Virus record (IMG/VR): IMGVR_UViG_2737471841_000008
Coordinates: 1-6,919 of that record
From: a virus
Lineage: Duplodnaviria > Heunggongvirae > Uroviricota > Caudoviricetes
Length of the DNA: 6,919 bases
Strand: one strand, 5' to 3'
Below, in pieces: positions 1 through 6,919 of this stretch; positions within the stretch are counted from its first letter, which is position 1, and every line of letters begins with the position of its first letter. A program made the translations under genes and the position numbers. The notes under the pieces were generated by a model. That model did no database searches. It was not told the DNA's origin and saw only the letters and a list, made by a program, of their open reading frames with translations.

Positions 1-585
1 TTACTCCCTGACAGGGTTCGTAGGCCACTCAATATCAGGTGCAGTTGATGTATCAACACGGTTCAGCAACACCCGATATTTTTTCCAGGCTTCCAGCAAT
101 GAGGTTTCTTCCTCCGTTGCGATTTCCAGATCTACAGCATCCTGAAGCGGCGCTATATGCTCACTGGCTACCTGCATCAGGCTGTTTTTTGTTTCTTCCG
201 CCTCCCGGATCCGGAACAGTTTTTCTGCTTCCGTATCCTTCACCCAGGCTGTGCCGTTCCACTTCTGAAACTCCCCTTCCGGGGATAACCAGGTGACATT
301 TTCCGGTAATGAGCCGAGTTCAGAAATAAATAACGCGTCGCCGGAAGCCACGTCATAAACCGTTTTACCCCGATGATCTTCAACGAGATGCCACGATGAC
401 TCATCACTGTTGAAAACAGCCACGAAACCAGCCGGAATATCTGGCGGTGCAATATCGGTACTGTTTGCTGGCAGACCTGTATGAGGCGGAATATATGCAT
501 CACCTTCACCAATAAATTCATTAGTTCCGGACAGCAGATTATAAATTTTTATGGTCCGTGGTTGTTCACTCATTCTGAATGCCAT
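1..585 (-). CDS. tfa: Tail fibre assembly protein (lambda Tfa-like, 194 aa)
   Basis: Complete ORF, ATG at 585-583, TAA at 3-1. Translation [18 protein letters not shown]...[11 protein letters not shown] matches from recall the phage lambda Tfa protein of the same length, almost residue for residue. Its ATG shares one base with the stop of the upstream stf ORF (TAATG at 583-587). Confidence 0.9.
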
Positions 586-1799
586 TATGCAAGCCTCACA
601 ATGTAGTTAAATGCGATGTTTTTGACGGTGTTTTCCGCGTTACCAGCAGCGTTAACGGTGATGGTGTGTCCATGTGAGCCAATCGCAACAGAGTGCGTAT
701 GAGCACCAATACCGACAGTATGTGCGTGAGCACCTGCAGATGCAGCTGTGCCGCTGACACTATGAGTGTGCGCTCCTGCAGCACTTGTATTCACACTGGC
801 CGCAGACACTACCTTATGTACTGACCCATTTTGTGACCACTGGCTGACTGCTGATGCGCCTGTGACACTATGAGTATGGTTTCCGGCACTTGCGGCTGTA
901 CCGCTCACACTGTGCGTATGCGCCCCGATGTTATTCGTGGATTTAGTGCCGTAATCAAACGACGATGTGGTTTTCGTCCCCAAATCCGTACTGGATGCAC
1001 TGGCGCTGTGGGTGTGCGATTTAATGCCGTCCTGTTCCTGAGACAATACGGCCCGACCACTGGCAGGTTTGCCCTTAATCGTCCAGCCACGCATATCAGG
1101 GATCACGCCTGACGGATAAGCGGTTGCAAGTTTCGGGTAAGCGGATTTGTCAAAAGTCTGCCCCTGCATCAGGGCATAACCAGACGGAACGGTATCTGAT
1201 GGCCACGGGATTGGTGCGCCAGGCGGATAAAACTGCTCTGATGGCGTATAGAGTGAATAAACTGTACCGTCCGTTAACCCTTCCGGCTTATTAGCAGAAT
1301 ATGCTGGTGACGTATGAATAGTCACGCTGGCATTACTGGTATAATCCCATTGAATATTTACACCAGTCGCATAATTTCCGATTGCAACGTAAATATCGTA
1401 AGTATCACCAGATGTATTGACCCAGGCAAAATTTGTAAACCCTGTCGATGTGCGCTGCCATAAAGCACCAGTAATCCCCTTCGGATTACCATTACCTGCA
1501 CGCAAAACAAGTTCAGATATACCTGCCTGTTGAGGTGACCCCACGTTAAATCCCGCGCCACCAATCAACGTAATTGAAACAACAGAACTCGCCTGTGGCA
1601 TGGTTACCGTTGCTAATTTGAACCAACCAGCACCACCGCTGAATGACATTGTTGTTGAGTTAAGCGTACCAATATCTTTCGGCGTCAGTGTTATATCCGC
1701 TGAAAGCGCCTTACCATTCACCTTACGGGCAGAAGGTAACCCTGCGTCTGTCAGCACAGTAAAACCCGGTGTGCATCGTTTTTGATTATTCCCGCACAC
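585..1799 (-). CDS. stf: Side tail fibre protein, C-terminal receptor-binding portion (5'-truncated remnant; the track start is a GTG directly after an in-frame TGA)
   Basis: 404-aa ORF ending ...[15 protein letters not shown] with repeated His-rich [15 protein letters not shown] units, as in lambda Stf / T4 gp37-type fibre tips. The segment [19 protein letters not shown] is a typical internal tail-fibre repeat. Full-length Stf proteins are much longer; here the reading frame is closed by an in-frame TGA at 1800-1802 (minus strand), so the N-terminal tail-attachment part is absent. Confidence 0.72.
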
Positions 1800-2048
1800 T
1801 CACGCAGAAGGAATTCCCCGTCGGGCTACGGTCATGGTTAATGCGGGAATACGGCGACGATACAGCGCAGCTAAAAGGGTAATGGACAGAAAGAGCGGTT
1901 TATTTCATTCCACAGGATTCTGAGTGCCCCCCTCCTCCAATAGGCTGAGCATCCACCTATATAGTTTTAATTTTCATCAATCCATTTAACTATCGTTTAA
2001 TTGTTGTCACATAGGATTCTGCCGTTTTTAACAATGCAGGATAATAAG

Positions 2049-3329: not shown

Positions 3330-3544
3330 TATTCACCTCTCGCAGCCTTGCGCTTATCTTCTTTAATCTTGAAATAAAGGTTTGTCAGGTACGTCAGCAG
3401 GCCAAATACCAGGCTACCCAGCACTCCAATTGCCGCCCACTGTGAGGGCGTGACTTTATCTAGCAGCTGTAAAAACCAGTACCCGGCACTACCTGCTGAG
3501 GTGCCATAGGCGACACCCGTTGTTAACTTATCCATGGATTTCAT
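3329..3544 (-). CDS. essD: Pinholin (phage 21 S-type class II holin, 71 aa) with dual-start motif Met1-Lys2-Ser3-Met4
   Basis: [71 protein letters not shown], near-identical from recall to phage 21 S. RBS GAGGTGG at 3549-3555 (minus strand). ATG codons at 3544-3542 and 3535-3533 give the 71/68 dual-start arrangement. Confidence 0.9.
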
Positions 3545-3667
3545 AACCCCACCTCGCAGACAAAGCGGGTGTAAATTGAGGGAATACTACGAAACGTAAC
3601 AGACTCGGAGTCAGTGAATAACTCAGGTATTGGGTTATCAGCTAATATCGAGACTCAAAAAATGGAA

Positions 3668-3689
3668 AAACCCGCTCGACGGCGGGTTT
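3668..3689 (-). terminator. Intrinsic terminator-like hairpin on the minus strand, ~125 nt upstream of the holin start (candidate tR'-type terminator)
   Basis: Plus strand aaacccgc-tcgacg-gcgggttt forms an 8-bp stem with a 6-nt loop. On the minus strand the stem is followed immediately by TTCCATTTTTT (RC of 3655-3667). On the plus strand it is not followed by a T-tract, so it is minus-strand specific. Confidence 0.45.
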
Positions 3690-3999
3690 AAGCTGTGTGA
3701 CGAAGTAACCACTCTTAACAGCATAACCAATTTTTTACGTACGTAAACCACTAAATGATATTTGCGAGAATGCTACCGAGTATTGAAAACACCACTACAA
3801 ATACATAAGCAAATCTCAACAAATAACCAACAAATTATTTCCAGTGTTATTTTTAGCTTATTTAAATTGAACCTTCAAATTATAGAGCGCTTATAAATAA
3901 CAGTCGTTAATATAAATTGGCTAATAGATTTATTTTTATTCAGCAAAGAGCTATGAATAGGATTCGATAGAAAAAAGTTCAGATAAAAATAGAGATCTA

Positions 4000-4116
4000 C
4001 TTCACAAATCAAACGAGAAACCAAAACTTACATCTTGAAATAATCACATTGATTAGATGAATATTTATCGCGCAGTGACATCATTTTTTAATAATAGTTC
4101 AAAAAAAGGGCTCACG
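4000..4116 (+). promoter_or_regulatory. Porin gene promoter / 5' leader region, containing an OmpR-box-like sequence CTTACATCTTGAAATAATCA (4027-4046)
   Basis: AT-rich region immediately upstream of the porin start. 4027-4046 resembles, from memory, the ompC C1 OmpR site TTTACATTTTGAAACATCTA (about 14 of 20 positions, the left half nearly perfect). Exact -35/-10 elements not resolved. Confidence 0.3.
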
Positions 4117-5214
4117 ATGAAAAAATTAACAGTGGCAATTTCTGCTGTAGCTGCATCAGTACTGATGGCGATGTCTGCTCAGGCAGCTGAAATTTATAAT
4201 AAAGACAGTAACAAGCTGGATCTGTACGGGAAAGTTAATGCTAAGCACTACTTCTCCTCTAATGATGCAGATGATGGTGATACTACTTATGCCCGTCTTG
4301 GCTTCAAAGGTGAAACCCAAATCAACGATCAACTGACTGGTTTCGGTCAGTGGGAATATGAATTCAAAGGCAACCGCGCTGAATCTCAAGGTTCCTCCAA
4401 AGACAAAACCCGTCTTGCATTTGCAGGCCTGAAATTCGGTGACTACGGCTCAATCGATTACGGCCGTAACTACGGTGTAGCATACGACATCGGTGCGTGG
4501 ACTGACGTTCTGCCAGAATTCGGTGGCGATACCTGGACCCAAACAGATGTGTTCATGACTGGTCGCACCACTGGTGTTGCAACCTATCGTAACAACGACT
4601 TCTTTGGTCTGGTTGATGGTCTGAACTTTGCTGCTCAGTACCAAGGCAAAAACGATCGTAGCGATTTCGATAACTACACTGAAGGTAACGGTGATGGCTT
4701 CGGTTTCTCTGCTACCTATGAATACGAAGGATTCGGTATCGGTGCAACTTATGCGAAATCTGATCGTACCGACACTCAAGTTAATGCAGGGAAAGTTCTT
4801 CCTGAAGTATTTGCTTCCGGTAAAAATGCAGAAGTTTGGGCCGCAGGTCTGAAATATGACGCTAACAACATTTACCTGGCCACTACCTATTCTGAAACCC
4901 AGAATATGACTGTATTTGCTGATCACTTCGTTGCTAATAAAGCCCAAAACTTCGAAGCTGTTGCACAATATCAGTTCGATTTCGGTCTGCGTCCGTCCGT
5001 TGCTTACCTGCAATCTAAAGGTAAGGATCTTGGAGTATGGGGCGATCAGGACTTAGTCAAATATGTTGATGTAGGTGCAACCTATTACTTCAACAAAAAT
5101 ATGTCTACTTTCGTTGATTACAAAATCAACCTGCTTGACAAAAATGACTTCACTAAAGCACTCGGTGTAAGCACTGATGACATCGTTGCTGTAGGTCTGG
5201 TTTACCAGTTCTAA
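4117..5214 (+). CDS. nmpC: Outer-membrane general porin, phage-encoded NmpC/Lc type (OmpC/OmpF/PhoE family), intact, 365 aa
   Basis: ATG at 4117 with RBS AGGG at 4107-4110; stop TAA at 5212-5214. Signal peptide [23 protein letters not shown], mature N-terminus [16 protein letters not shown], porin hallmarks throughout and the C-terminal VGLVYQF ending in Phe. The track start at 4057 (MNIYRAV...) is rejected because the signal peptide begins at 4117. Confidence 0.92.
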
Positions 5215-5230
5215 TCTGATTACGAAAAAG

Positions 5231-5264
5231 ATATGTTGCGGGAGGCGTTGCCTCCCCAACATAT
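5231..5264 (-). terminator. Strong intrinsic terminator on the minus strand just past the 3' end of the porin gene (alternative candidate tR' for Q-dependent late transcription)
   Basis: atatgttg-c-gggaggc / gttg / cctccc-caacatat forms an imperfect ~14-bp GC-rich stem with one bulged C. On the minus strand it is followed by CTTTTTCGTA (RC of 5221-5230); on the plus strand there is no T-tract after it. Confidence 0.45.
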
Positions 5265-5352
5265 AAGTGGCTCCCTCAAGCCACTTCCTTTAGAAGCACA
5301 ACCTTGCTTCTAACTATATAAACCTTCTGTTATATATTACCCTTTATTTTTG

Positions 5353-5386
5353 GGGGCGTCTCAACGCCCCATTTTTAATAATTTTT
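5353..5386 (+). terminator. Intrinsic terminator on the plus strand (likely porin mRNA terminator)
   Basis: gggggcg-tctcaa-cgcccc stem-loop (5353-5370) followed on the plus strand by ATTTTTAATAATTTTT. On the minus strand it is followed by an A-rich tract, so it is not a minus-strand terminator. Confidence 0.45.
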
Positions 5387-5403
5387 AGTAAACAATTGGC
5401 ATA

Positions 5404-5787: not shown

Positions 5788-6117
5788 TAACTTTCTCCAC
5801 AAAATCAGGCCAGCACACCAATCGCCAGTGCGCGATCGATAAAACGAAATATCAGCTCAAGCTGGGAGCCATACTTCTCTTCAAATGCCACGGTAACCAG
5901 GTCCACCTCGCCTGATGTGGCTAAAAGCAGGCACATAACAGCTAAGTATTTTCAACCAGAGAGAATCCTTAGCGTTGTGGTGAATGCGGCTCAGCGCACG
6001 CGGGTTAAGGTTGAGGCTGACAGTCGACCTTCTGTGGATACCCACCCGCCTGGTGTGCAACCTTCGCCAGGCACCGGGAGGCACCCGGCACCACAACTTT
6101 ATGCTGTGTGTAGTCCT

Positions 6118-6164
6118 GGCGGTACCAGCTTGTACCCTTGCTTCCGGCTGGTACCGTCCTTTTT
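6118..6164 (+). terminator. Terminator-like hairpin on the plus strand inside the non-coding region upstream of the integrase-like ORF
   Basis: cggtaccagc (6120-6129) pairs perfectly with gctggtaccg (6147-6156), enclosing a 17-nt loop, and is followed by TCCTTTTT (6157-6164). No T-tract follows it on the minus strand. Confidence 0.35.
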
Positions 6165-6253
6165 ACAAAACAGAGAAGAGCATCACCGGACGACGGGCTC
6201 ATAACCCAATCCATCCGGGCGGCAGTCACCGCAGGTGTTCTTCTCTGTTTTGT
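6165..6253. repeat. Perfect 15-bp inverted repeat (acaaaacagagaaga / tcttctctgttttgt) separated by 59 nt, directly upstream of the integrase-like ORF
   Basis: Arms at 6165-6179 and 6239-6253 are exact reverse complements. An extra cacc/ggtg pairing (6184-6187 / 6234-6237) extends the stem and the intervening sequence contains further ccgg/ccgg pairing. Confidence 0.6.
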
Positions 6254-6301
6254 GGAGAAACTAACCGACCTTGCAGGGTCGATATGATGAGGAGCAGCAA
6301 A

Positions 6302-6919
6302 ATGGCTAGCGAACGCAGTACTGATGTGCAGGCATTTATCGGGGAGCTGGACGGCGGCGTATTTGAAACCAAAATCGGCGCAGTTCTCAGTGAAGTCGCT
6401 TCCGGTGTGATGAACACGAAAACCAAAGGTAAGGTCTCGCTCAACCTGGAAATCGAACCGTTTGATGAGAACCGAGTGAAAATCAAACACAAACTCTCAT
6501 ATGTTCGCCCGACTACCGCCTGTAAAGTGTTGCGTGATCAAATAGGCAAGCATCACAAATGGGTGTTTGTACATACCAAGGCGGCTAAGCGAGCAGATGG
6601 AACATCAACGCCTGCGGTCAGGAAGATGCGCATCGACAGCAAGACATCATGGCTATCAGCTTGTCGTCGTGCAGGAATTGAAGATTTCCGTTTCCATGAC
6701 CTCAGACACACCTGGGCAAGCTGGCTGATCCAGTCAGGCGTCCCATTATCTGTGCTTCAGGAAATGGGCGGATGGGAGTCCATAGAAATGGTTCGTAGGT
6801 ATGCTCACCTTGCGCCTAATCATTTGACAGAGCATGCAAGGAAAATAGACGACATTTTTGGTGATAATGTCCCAAATATGTCCCACTGTGGAATTATGGA
6901 GGATATAAAGAAGGCGTAA
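6302..6919 (+). CDS. Integrase-like ORF (205 aa): unrecognised ~85-aa N-terminal part fused in frame to a tyrosine-recombinase C-terminal catalytic tail; probable integrase remnant
   Basis: ATG at 6302 with AGGAG at 6290-6294; stop TAA at 6917-6919. The C-terminal half ...[60 protein letters not shown] carries box II H-x-x-R (HDLRHT), the conserved Trp, and the catalytic Tyr in RYAHL. No box I TGxRxxE motif is present in the N-terminal part. The same frame stays open back to an ATG at 5984, but that stretch translates to Arg/Cys/Trp-rich sequence that does not look protein-like. Confidence 0.6.

Follow-up and report, generated by a model that had tools for sequence, protein, structure and literature searches.

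The 572-bp gap between the divergent holin and porin genes very probably comprises two divergent, independently conserved control units with a variable AT-rich spacer between them. The unit at 3747–3655 on the minus strand is homologous to the late promoter pR', the initial transcribed region and the first hairpin of the 933W/Sakai Stx phages, while the unit at 3980–4116 on the plus strand is the porin promoter. Because the former is homologous to the pR' of Stx phages with a related antiterminator Q, the late promoter and terminator are placed in the gap and not next to Q, which settles a choice between these two locations that the original prediction had left standing. Both control units are already known from DLP12 (E. 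coli K-12) and phage PA-2, and the region is real, ordinary and characterised.

The window, meaning the whole stretch of 6,919 nucleotides that was analysed, corresponds to the late region of a DLP12/PA-2-type lambdoid prophage that is heavily deleted (a prophage stump). All six of its genes, encoding Q, holin, endolysin, Rz, Bor and porin, were confirmed by Pfam (Table 1). The late (lysis) genes for the holin, endolysin and Rz occupy 3544–2374 on the minus strand, 3' of the pR' homolog on its strand. The gap runs from the holin start codon, which ends at 3544 on the minus strand, to the porin ATG at 4117. It was described beforehand as an AT-rich divergent region of about 570 bp, and this holds: its G+C fraction is 0.34, relative to 0.28 for the spacer and 0.46 for the whole window. 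No RNA family was assigned to 3545–4116 when the whole window was scanned permissively against Rfam.

Table 1 Features of the window and of the holin–porin gap, in window coordinates.
Feature	Position	Strand	Details
Antiterminator Q	5790–5404	minus	Pfam PF06530, 8.7e-54, residues 2–119
Holin, S21-/P21-type	3544–3329	minus	Pfam
Endolysin	3329–2832	minus	Pfam
Rz	2835–2374	minus	Pfam
bor	2049–2342	plus	Pfam
Porin lc/nmpC coding sequence	4117–5214	plus	Pfam Porin_1, 1e-156
Divergent gap, holin S (minus) / porin lc/nmpC (plus)	3545–4116		572 bp, 34% G+C
Lysis-operon leader	3545–3654	minus	Terminator tail to holin start; Shine-Dalgarno 3555–3550
Intrinsic terminator, tR'-type	3655–3689	minus	Stem 3689–3668, U-rich tail to ~3655
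Conserved initial transcribed region of pR', AGTGGTTACTTCGTCACACAGC	3692–3713	minus	TAAGAGTGGTTAC exact in all related loci
Late promoter pR' homolog	3720–3747	minus	Aligned to annotated pR' of 933W, SC370 and Ss-VASD
Perfect 14-bp palindrome, TTTACGTACGTAAA	3734–3747		Overlaps −35 of the pR' homolog
Variable AT-rich spacer	3749–3979		28% G+C, between the two control units
Proximal CRP site	3989–4009	plus	Annotated in PA-2 record J02580, mapped by alignment
OmpR-box-like sequence, CTTACATCTTGAAATAATCA	4027–4046	plus	14/20 to ompC C1; inside K-12 ChIP-exo peak
Porin promoter −10, likely start, 5' UTR	4060–4116	plus	−10 AATATT 4060–4065, start G4072, 45-nt 5' UTR
Sigma-E-like motif TGAACTA-N16-TCACT	4074–4101	minus	Start near 4068
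Porin cargo	4117–5380	plus	Coding sequence, ipeX-type 3' UTR, terminator 5353–5370 (scan, fold)

We compared the gap to known phages and genomes. It is ~98–99% identical to DLP12 (the nmpC–essD gap) and to phage 434B, and 2356 of 5426 complete E. coli genomes (~43%) carry it over at least 80% of its length. The DLP12 (qsr') prophage of MG1655 has the same gene order (quuD, nmpC, essD, rrrD, rzpD, borD), with 611 of 621 aligned bases identical, and shares the pR' module, the hairpin, the CRP site and the OmpR peak position with the window. For nmpC, published work names CRP, OmpR and IHF as regulators, and for the lysis cassette it names Q and RpoE; the Adams 2021 supplements contained no K-12 transcript-end data for essD, nmpC or quuD. 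In K-12, nmpC is broken by IS5, whereas the porin of the window is intact; ten substitutions fall in the spacer, and the window prophage is deleted differently. PA-2 (J02580), at 93% identity over its lc region, has an intact lc porin divergent from an S21-type holin, like the window.

Next, we aligned the gap from nine phages of the same porin architecture and counted the columns that vary. The late promoter and initial transcribed region are invariant (0/59 columns; 0/35 in the promoter and 0/24 in the initial transcribed region), and a single column of 35 varies in the hairpin and its tail. The porin promoter block (3980–4071) is 97% conserved, with variation in 6 of its 92 columns. Between these blocks, 54 of the 231 columns of the AT-rich spacer vary, at a mean pairwise identity of 89%. 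The spacer contains the TATAAT that had been noted at 3884–3879 on the minus strand. The hexamer is present, but was rejected as a promoter, since the shuffled gap averages 1.1 copies and 66% of shuffles have at least one, PA-2 reads TATGAT, and the late promoter homolog lies elsewhere, at 3747–3720. This TATAAT is a chance match.

The value of these assignments lies mainly in correct annotation of a common prophage type, in which the late promoter is beside the lysis genes and not beside Q. The porin lies outside the late transcript and under host CRP and OmpR, and thus the lysogenic-conversion porin and the lysis cassette can be under separate regulation. Annotators should not assume that pR' directly follows Q.

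Host control of the porin promoter

Two CRP sites are annotated in the PA-2 record (J02580), and these map by alignment to window positions 3693–3713 and 3989–4009. The proximal site has the core AGAGA-N6-TCACA at 3991–4006, centred ~73.5 bp upstream of the likely porin start, and is invariant in the nine phages. Although the CRP sites constitute the main activator inputs and are marked in that record, the original prediction had overlooked them. A recent paper gives the regulators of nmpC as CRP at two operators, OmpR, IHF and MprA.

The likely start of the porin transcript is G4072. The nmpC start was identified as a "G" by 5'-RACE in K-12, and G4072 lies 43 bp from the centre of the OmpR ChIP-exo peak described below, agreeing with the published distance of |43| in magnitude but not in sign. 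Taken literally, the published sign would place the start at 3986, which is an A. With the start at G4072, CRP is centred near −73.5 and the OmpR-like box extends from −45 to −26, a layout that fits CRP activation and OmpR repression.

The sequence at 4027–4046 had been put forward as an OmpR binding box. The resemblance is there, extending to 14 of 20 positions of ompC C1, but the motif score is no better than background, which is one of the two outcomes that the original prediction had named as jointly refuting it. We took six reference OmpR sites (ompF F1–F3 and ompC C1–C3), each of which is an exact match in MG1655, and built 20-bp and 10-bp half-site matrices from these verified sites. 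Scoring with a position weight matrix, which had been suggested as a check, gave 3.15 bits for the box, ranking it 7 of 1106 positions in the gap. A better-scoring site occurred in each of 500 dinucleotide shuffles, and a 14/20 match to any of the six sites was reached in 75% of shuffles; neither matrix separates 4027–4046 from background. This motif test has little power because genuine weak OmpR sites behave alike, with C2, C3 and F3 scoring 0 to 3.8 bits, no better, when left out one at a time. An alternative box on the opposite strand, at 4012–4031, scores slightly higher (4.45 bits). The box would lie within ~4012–4046, in either orientation.

Published experiments are more direct. A 2017 ChIP-exo study places nmpC among the OmpR targets characterised earlier and classes it as repressed, with a peak at 576106–576166, and an increase of nmpC from 19.0 to 46.5 FPKM (2.4-fold) in an ompR knock-out under osmotic stress. 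Work from 1994 had already placed nmpC in the OmpR regulon. We converted the old-genome coordinates with an offset of 777, a conversion checked on ompF F1–F3 and ompC C1–C3, each of which lies beneath its peak. Converted in this way, the nmpC peak spans 3999–4059 of the window, a stretch across which the K-12 sequence is identical, and its centre at 4029 is 2 bp from the start of the 4027–4046 box. The porin is under OmpR control, and this conclusion rests on the published experiments and not on the motif score.

It is improbable that 4027–4046 is a chance AT-rich match, with OmpR exerting no meaningful regulation on the porin. Such a reading would account for the shuffles, in which the score of the box is always beaten and its match count commonly reached, and for the low ChIP-exo signal-to-noise at nmpC (2.26, compared with 43–110 for ompF, ompC and ompX). 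However, it leaves aside the position of the peak centre, the derepression of nmpC in the knock-out and its earlier place in the regulon, and the block containing the box is invariant in the nine phages. Furthermore, genuine weak sites score no better in the leave-one-out comparison.

The proposed link of the porin to host osmoregulation therefore stands, through the published OmpR repression and the ChIP-exo peak, whereas the proposed likeness to ompC does not, since the repression resembles that of ompF at high osmolarity. The sites of ompF (F1–F3) and ompC (C1–C3) consist of 10-bp phased A/T-rich half-sites like those of the window box, and GAAACCAAAA at 4017–4026 resembles an F2 half-site. 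Whereas ompF and ompC have three tandem activating sites between −100 and −40, the window has a single weak repressing site over the −35. The overlap of the 4027–4046 box with the −35 region of the porin promoter fits repression. We propose that the porin promoter would be activated by cAMP–CRP from the site near −73, and that OmpR bound at ~4012–4046 over the −35 would repress it, linking the porin to host catabolite and osmolarity/pH control.

The pR' homolog and its control

We searched with 3545–3760 as the query and found 36 phages that share the entire stretch. The same search returned ~280 Stx-phage records that match 3666–3748 only, at 77–78% identity, and in 933W, SC370 and Ss-VASD this match is exactly the annotated pR' and the first downstream terminator. 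Thus, the suggestion that the hairpin is the tR'-like terminator of a late promoter is borne out by homology. The promoter has a −35 of TTTACG (3747–3742), a 16-bp spacer and a −10 of TATGCT (3725–3720), and lies ~25 nt upstream of the hairpin. It matches the consensus at only 8 of 12 positions and was missed by a promoter scan.

Published dRNA-seq and Term-seq data for the Sakai Stx phages, including Sp5, define a constitutive pR' start and a 258-nt RNA. Because genome versions differ, the Sp5 start was inferred by setting the published 3' end on the U-tract of its second terminator; it then lies 7 nt past the −10 that is homologous to the one here, and the equivalent base in the window is A3713. 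The transcript of the pR' homolog would accordingly be expected to start near A3713.

The Stx phages (933W, Sakai Sp5/Sp15 and H-19B) carry a Q of the same family, and are homologous to the window in the −35, palindrome, initial transcribed region and first hairpin. Their pR' is constitutive, and terminated in lysogens. The initial transcribed region falls at the distal CRP site of the PA-2 annotation, and probably carries a sigma-dependent pause element. Within its invariant stretch, GAGTGGTTAC, the sequence TGGTTACTT (+3 to +11) resembles an extended −10 only weakly, and the region yielded no clear −10-like pause element.

The palindrome over the −35 is retained as dyad symmetry in other phages while its sequence differs (TTTACGATCGTAAA in 933W, GCGTACGC in 569R4 and GCGGTCCGC in 1720a-02), and 1720a-02 keeps the dyad with a Q that is only ~50% identical. 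This palindrome may be bound by a protein, and could be the Q-binding element. By comparison, Q21 binds two 8-bp subsites arranged as a direct repeat.

The Q of the window is 79% identical to that of 933W, and the Stx phages with the pR' match carry Qs that are 79–85% identical. It also matches the Q21 structures 6JNX and 6P18 (E = 7.6e-8). These similarities assign the protein to the Q21/Q933W family (PF06530), as the predicted trans-acting partner of pR'. The candidate assignment of this Q to the phage 82 type was rejected, since the two proteins are unrelated.

The lambda pR'/6S RNA/tR' and Q21 cassettes have the same logic as the window: a promoter, a proximal pause, a terminator and the late genes, with Q-dependent read-through. 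Lambda differs in having a Q from a different protein family and a terminator at +194. By analogy to the Q21/lambda paradigm, in the absence of Q, polymerase from the sigma-70 pR' homolog would make a ~50-nt RNA and stop ahead of the holin gene. With Q (5790–5404), polymerase would be modified at the promoter-proximal pause and continue past the hairpin to transcribe the genes for the holin, endolysin and Rz. Expression of Q in a heavily deleted prophage is itself not assured; the Q gene is intact by Pfam.

The literature describes the DLP12 lysis operon as controlled by both the phage Q-type antiterminator and RpoE. A DLP12 reporter study (PMC7918800) gives the regulatory region as "−121 to +650", citing Rueggeberg 2015. 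The forward primer of that study maps to 4189–4170 of the window, and its numbering therefore sets a +1 at ~4068 on the minus strand. The sigma-E-like motif at 4074–4101, just upstream of this +1, is a loose one, of which the window has 5 examples on each strand, and is probably the RpoE-dependent lysis-cassette promoter reported for DLP12. A sigma-E-type promoter at this position, overlapping the porin 5' UTR, would probably read back toward the lysis genes. The OmpR site is located just downstream of this minus-strand start, while the distal CRP site falls exactly on the initial transcribed region of pR'.

We considered whether the pR'-like module could be a non-functional relic, with the lysis genes driven only by host-controlled upstream promoters, such as the sigma-E-type promoter near 4068, and the hairpin attenuating those transcripts. 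The window is a prophage stump, the pR' homolog is a weak consensus match, the DLP12 lysis genes are reported to be RpoE-regulated and responsive to pH, osmolarity and temperature, and the published numbering supplies a minus-strand +1. Nevertheless, this is a distinctly improbable account. The promoter and initial transcribed region are invariant in plaque-forming phages of the same architecture (Turner, ev207 and 4C10), which must express their lysis genes late. In addition, Q is intact in the window, and the literature has a Q-type antiterminator controlling the DLP12 lysis operon. Host-driven and Q-driven roles are not mutually exclusive.

Porin as cargo between Q and pR'

The pR' homolog is not immediately after Q but 1.66 kb from the Q stop codon, with the porin between. 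In the textbook lambda and Q21 cassettes Q adjoins the promoter, and in the Stx phages pR' overlaps the 3' end of Q. The porin has the features of a moron: its own promoter (3980–4116) and terminator (5353–5370), a position flanked by the Q core and pR', and an orientation opposite to theirs. The DNA upstream of it has a G+C content of 28–30%, against 46% for the window. When this upstream DNA was compared with that of chromosomal ompD-like porins from Citrobacter, Salmonella, Enterobacter and other genera, only chance-level matches were found.

Comparison of related Qs reveals a common core that ends ...LEMD (~residue 120), followed by unrelated tails, and homology to 933W resumes exactly at the −35 of pR'. 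We propose that the porin gene would have been inserted, as accessory cargo, after the Q core and ahead of the −35 of pR'. Late transcription from this pR' would thus not need to cross the porin antisense.

We looked at the same junction in an IMG/VR sample of 101 contigs in which the module is preceded by a Q of this family; as the sample contains redundancy and is limited in size, the counts are qualitative only. Among the contigs listed, Q adjoins pR' in 21, while the other 80 have 0.6–3.0 kb of cargo between them, in at least 12 size classes, and this cargo is a porin in 36 of the 80. The other cargo is mostly on the opposite strand and of low G+C, and includes a KAP NTPase and matches to PADLOC candidate defence families. 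Elsewhere, the same slot holds one ORF in PhiR55_1, two ORFs in phi467 and one in POCJ13. Lambda_2E9 has a close Q with a lipocalin gene downstream, and no copy of the pR' module was found within the 6.4 kb examined. In phages of the Q21/Q933W family, the junction of the Q core and pR' appears to serve generally as a site at which accessory and candidate defence genes are inserted. Since Q and pR' are split in 80 of these 101 viral contigs, their adjacency is typical of the textbook cases and does not define the family. The variety of cargo at this site, including candidate anti-phage genes, could guide searches for accessory genes in lambdoid prophages.

The textbook arrangement would instead have the late promoter and terminator directly 3' of Q, with a promoter within 5403–5265 and the hairpin at 5264–5231 as the terminator. 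The late transcripts would then run antisense across the porin, and the hairpin at 3689–3668 would be only a second barrier or insulator. The 5264–5231 hairpin is stable on the minus strand (−21 kcal/mol, z = −3.4), is followed by CUUUUUCG and lies ~140 nt past the Q stop. However, the promoter scan found no promoter-like site on the minus strand of 5403–5265, between Q and the porin. This stretch resembles none of the pR' sequences that accompany related Qs and is occupied by the porin 3' UTR and terminator, while a strongly constrained pR' homolog is located at 3747–3713. We therefore regard a late promoter beside Q as very improbable. A better account of the 5264–5231 hairpin is that it ends the Q transcript, forms a structure of the ipeX 3' UTR, or both. 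We also rejected the idea that IpeX is a 6S-like pR' transcript made beside Q, since ipeX, as described in PMC12197685, is part of the porin transcript.

The terminator hairpin and the lysis-operon leader

The terminator scan reported a minus-strand stem at 3689–3668, formed by 8 pairs between AAACCCGC and GCGGGTTT around a 6-nt loop (CGTCGA) and followed by the tail TTCCATTTTT. The fold has an energy of −12 kcal/mol (z = −3.1), equalled by 1 of 200 shuffles. This supports the minus-strand terminator that had been predicted here, although its distance to the holin Shine-Dalgarno sequence (3555–3550) is ~112 nt and not about 125 nt. The hairpin lies at +25 to +46 relative to the pR' start, and the predicted terminated RNA from the pR' homolog would be ~50–55 nt in length.

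That the hairpin is mainly a plus-strand or bidirectional terminator, shielding the porin promoter from antisense transcription through the lysis genes (for example, from bor), is barely credible, for although the plus-strand RNA folds slightly better (−13.5 kcal/mol) and an A-tract precedes the stem on that strand, the plus-strand tail UUUAAGC has three U only, the scan reports a terminator on the minus strand only, and the homologous Stx-phage element is in a one-directional context downstream of pR'.

Across diverged modules the stem is conserved and the loop is variable. Among the diverged porin phages the hairpin is likewise kept in 34 of 35 columns, but not in every phage: the one substitution, C3673A, breaks the stem in PA-2, Turner and ev207 and abolishes the predicted hairpin.

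In the Stx phages, the homologous first hairpin is more stable than that of the window, and the mapped 3' end of tR' is a second terminator at +258. From the position of this 3' end, the first hairpin must be read through at least partly. The Stx leader thus extends for 258 nt to the second terminator and yields the 74-nt StxS RNA. The window has only the first 47 nt of this leader in common; no second terminator was found in 3545–3654, and the +258 tR' and StxS sequence are absent from the window. Therefore, the hairpin at 3689–3668 is the only terminator ahead of the holin gene. Termination here may be leaky or dispensable, given the partial read-through of the Stx hairpin and the viable phages with C3673A. 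Leaky termination would be consistent with the basal activity that has been reported for the lysis genes of DLP12.

Two wider readings follow from this arrangement, and both may go beyond the accessible literature. The unit from pR' to the hairpin may constitutively make a ~50-nt RNA with its own regulatory role, as for StxS, and the CRP and OmpR sites may serve both of the divergent units; we consider this combination possible, though unlikely. If control by CRP and OmpR were shared, host osmolarity, pH and catabolite signals would set the leak-through into the lysis genes as well as the level of porin.

Compared with PA-2-type phages, the leader itself has an indel of 16/17 nt following 3590. 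In PA-2, the S leader is extended by a 16-nt insertion and the stem-breaking C-to-A change is also present, and the window has neither.

Sequence elements at and around the late promoter

We examined the divergent region between the holin and porin genes, which contains a homolog of the Q-dependent late promoter, pR' (minus strand, inferred start A3713). The palindrome listed in the table may form a protein-binding site, with Q, the antiterminator, possibly acting as the ligand. Phages 933W, 569R4 and 1720a-02 carry other sequences at this site while still retaining the dyad symmetry at the -35, and the Q proteins differ among these phages. The initial transcribed region of pR' lies exactly at the position of the distal CRP site, as annotated in the PA-2 record. 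Judging from these positions, CRP bound at this site would occupy +1 to +21 of the promoter.

The tR'-type terminator hairpin (minus strand, 3689-3668) varies naturally, with a C-to-A change at window 3673 in PA-2, Turner and ev207 (L001, L015 and L016 among the compared loci). This change disrupts G-C pair number three in the stem, and these phages lose the predicted hairpin. Closer to the holin gene, alignment of nine phages revealed that the holin leader differs by a 16/17-nt indel at 3590-3591. The extra nucleotides are missing from the window, DLP12 and 434B, and are carried by the other six: PA-2, Turner, ev207, ev243, 4C10 and PhiR49_1. At the porin end, the +1 of the DLP12 lysis-cassette promoter maps to approximately window 4068 by the published numbering, at the sigma-E-like motif (PMC7918800).

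Positions of features in the window
Feature	Position	Strand	Location
Distal CRP site	3693-3713		pR' initial transcribed region
Perfect 14-bp palindrome TTTACGTACGTAAA	3734-3747		Over the -35 of pR'
Sigma-E-like motif TGAACTA-N16-TCACT	4074-4101	minus	Antisense to porin 5' UTR
Hairpin (-21 kcal/mol), then CUUUUUCG	5264-5231	minus	Within porin 3' UTR (ipeX region)
Porin terminator	5353-5370		~30 nt from Q stop codon
IS009 match (Rfam)	44-242	minus	Inside tail-fibre-assembly ORF, 1-585
STnc100 match	5944-6167	plus	Degraded region upstream of Q

The junction between Q and pR'

The 3' ends of Q and porin are convergent and overlap (5215-5403), with porin's own terminator only ~30 nt from the Q stop codon. 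Among the IMG/VR matches listed (L103-L222), a redundant sample in which the counts are qualitative, the Q core (...LEMD) is separated from pR' by 0.6-3 kb of varied cargo in 80 of 101 contigs. Such cargo also occurs at loci L007, L010, L021 and L022. Porin is one of the genes found there; others encode a KAP NTPase (PADLOC PDC-S20), an HNH protein (PDC-M68A), matches to PADLOC PDC-S42 and PDC-M53A, a lipoprotein, and proteins of the NA37-like and ORF6N types. This junction looks like a slot for accessory or defence genes.

The prophage ends and matches to other genomes

The prophage is a stump at both ends of the window (1-2000 and 5800-6919). On one side bor directly adjoins the tail-fibre and tail-fibre-assembly genes, and the head and tail genes that would separate them are missing; on the other, a C-terminal integrase fragment is found at ~6500-6919. 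The whole window was found as one unbroken stretch in no complete E. coli genome of the collection searched; the best matches cover ~80% of it, pieced from 4-6 segments. The match to STnc100, an sRNA family, scored 42.4 bits, slightly below the gathering score of 47. The IS009 match is strong: it reaches 222.7 bits, where the gathering score is 117.
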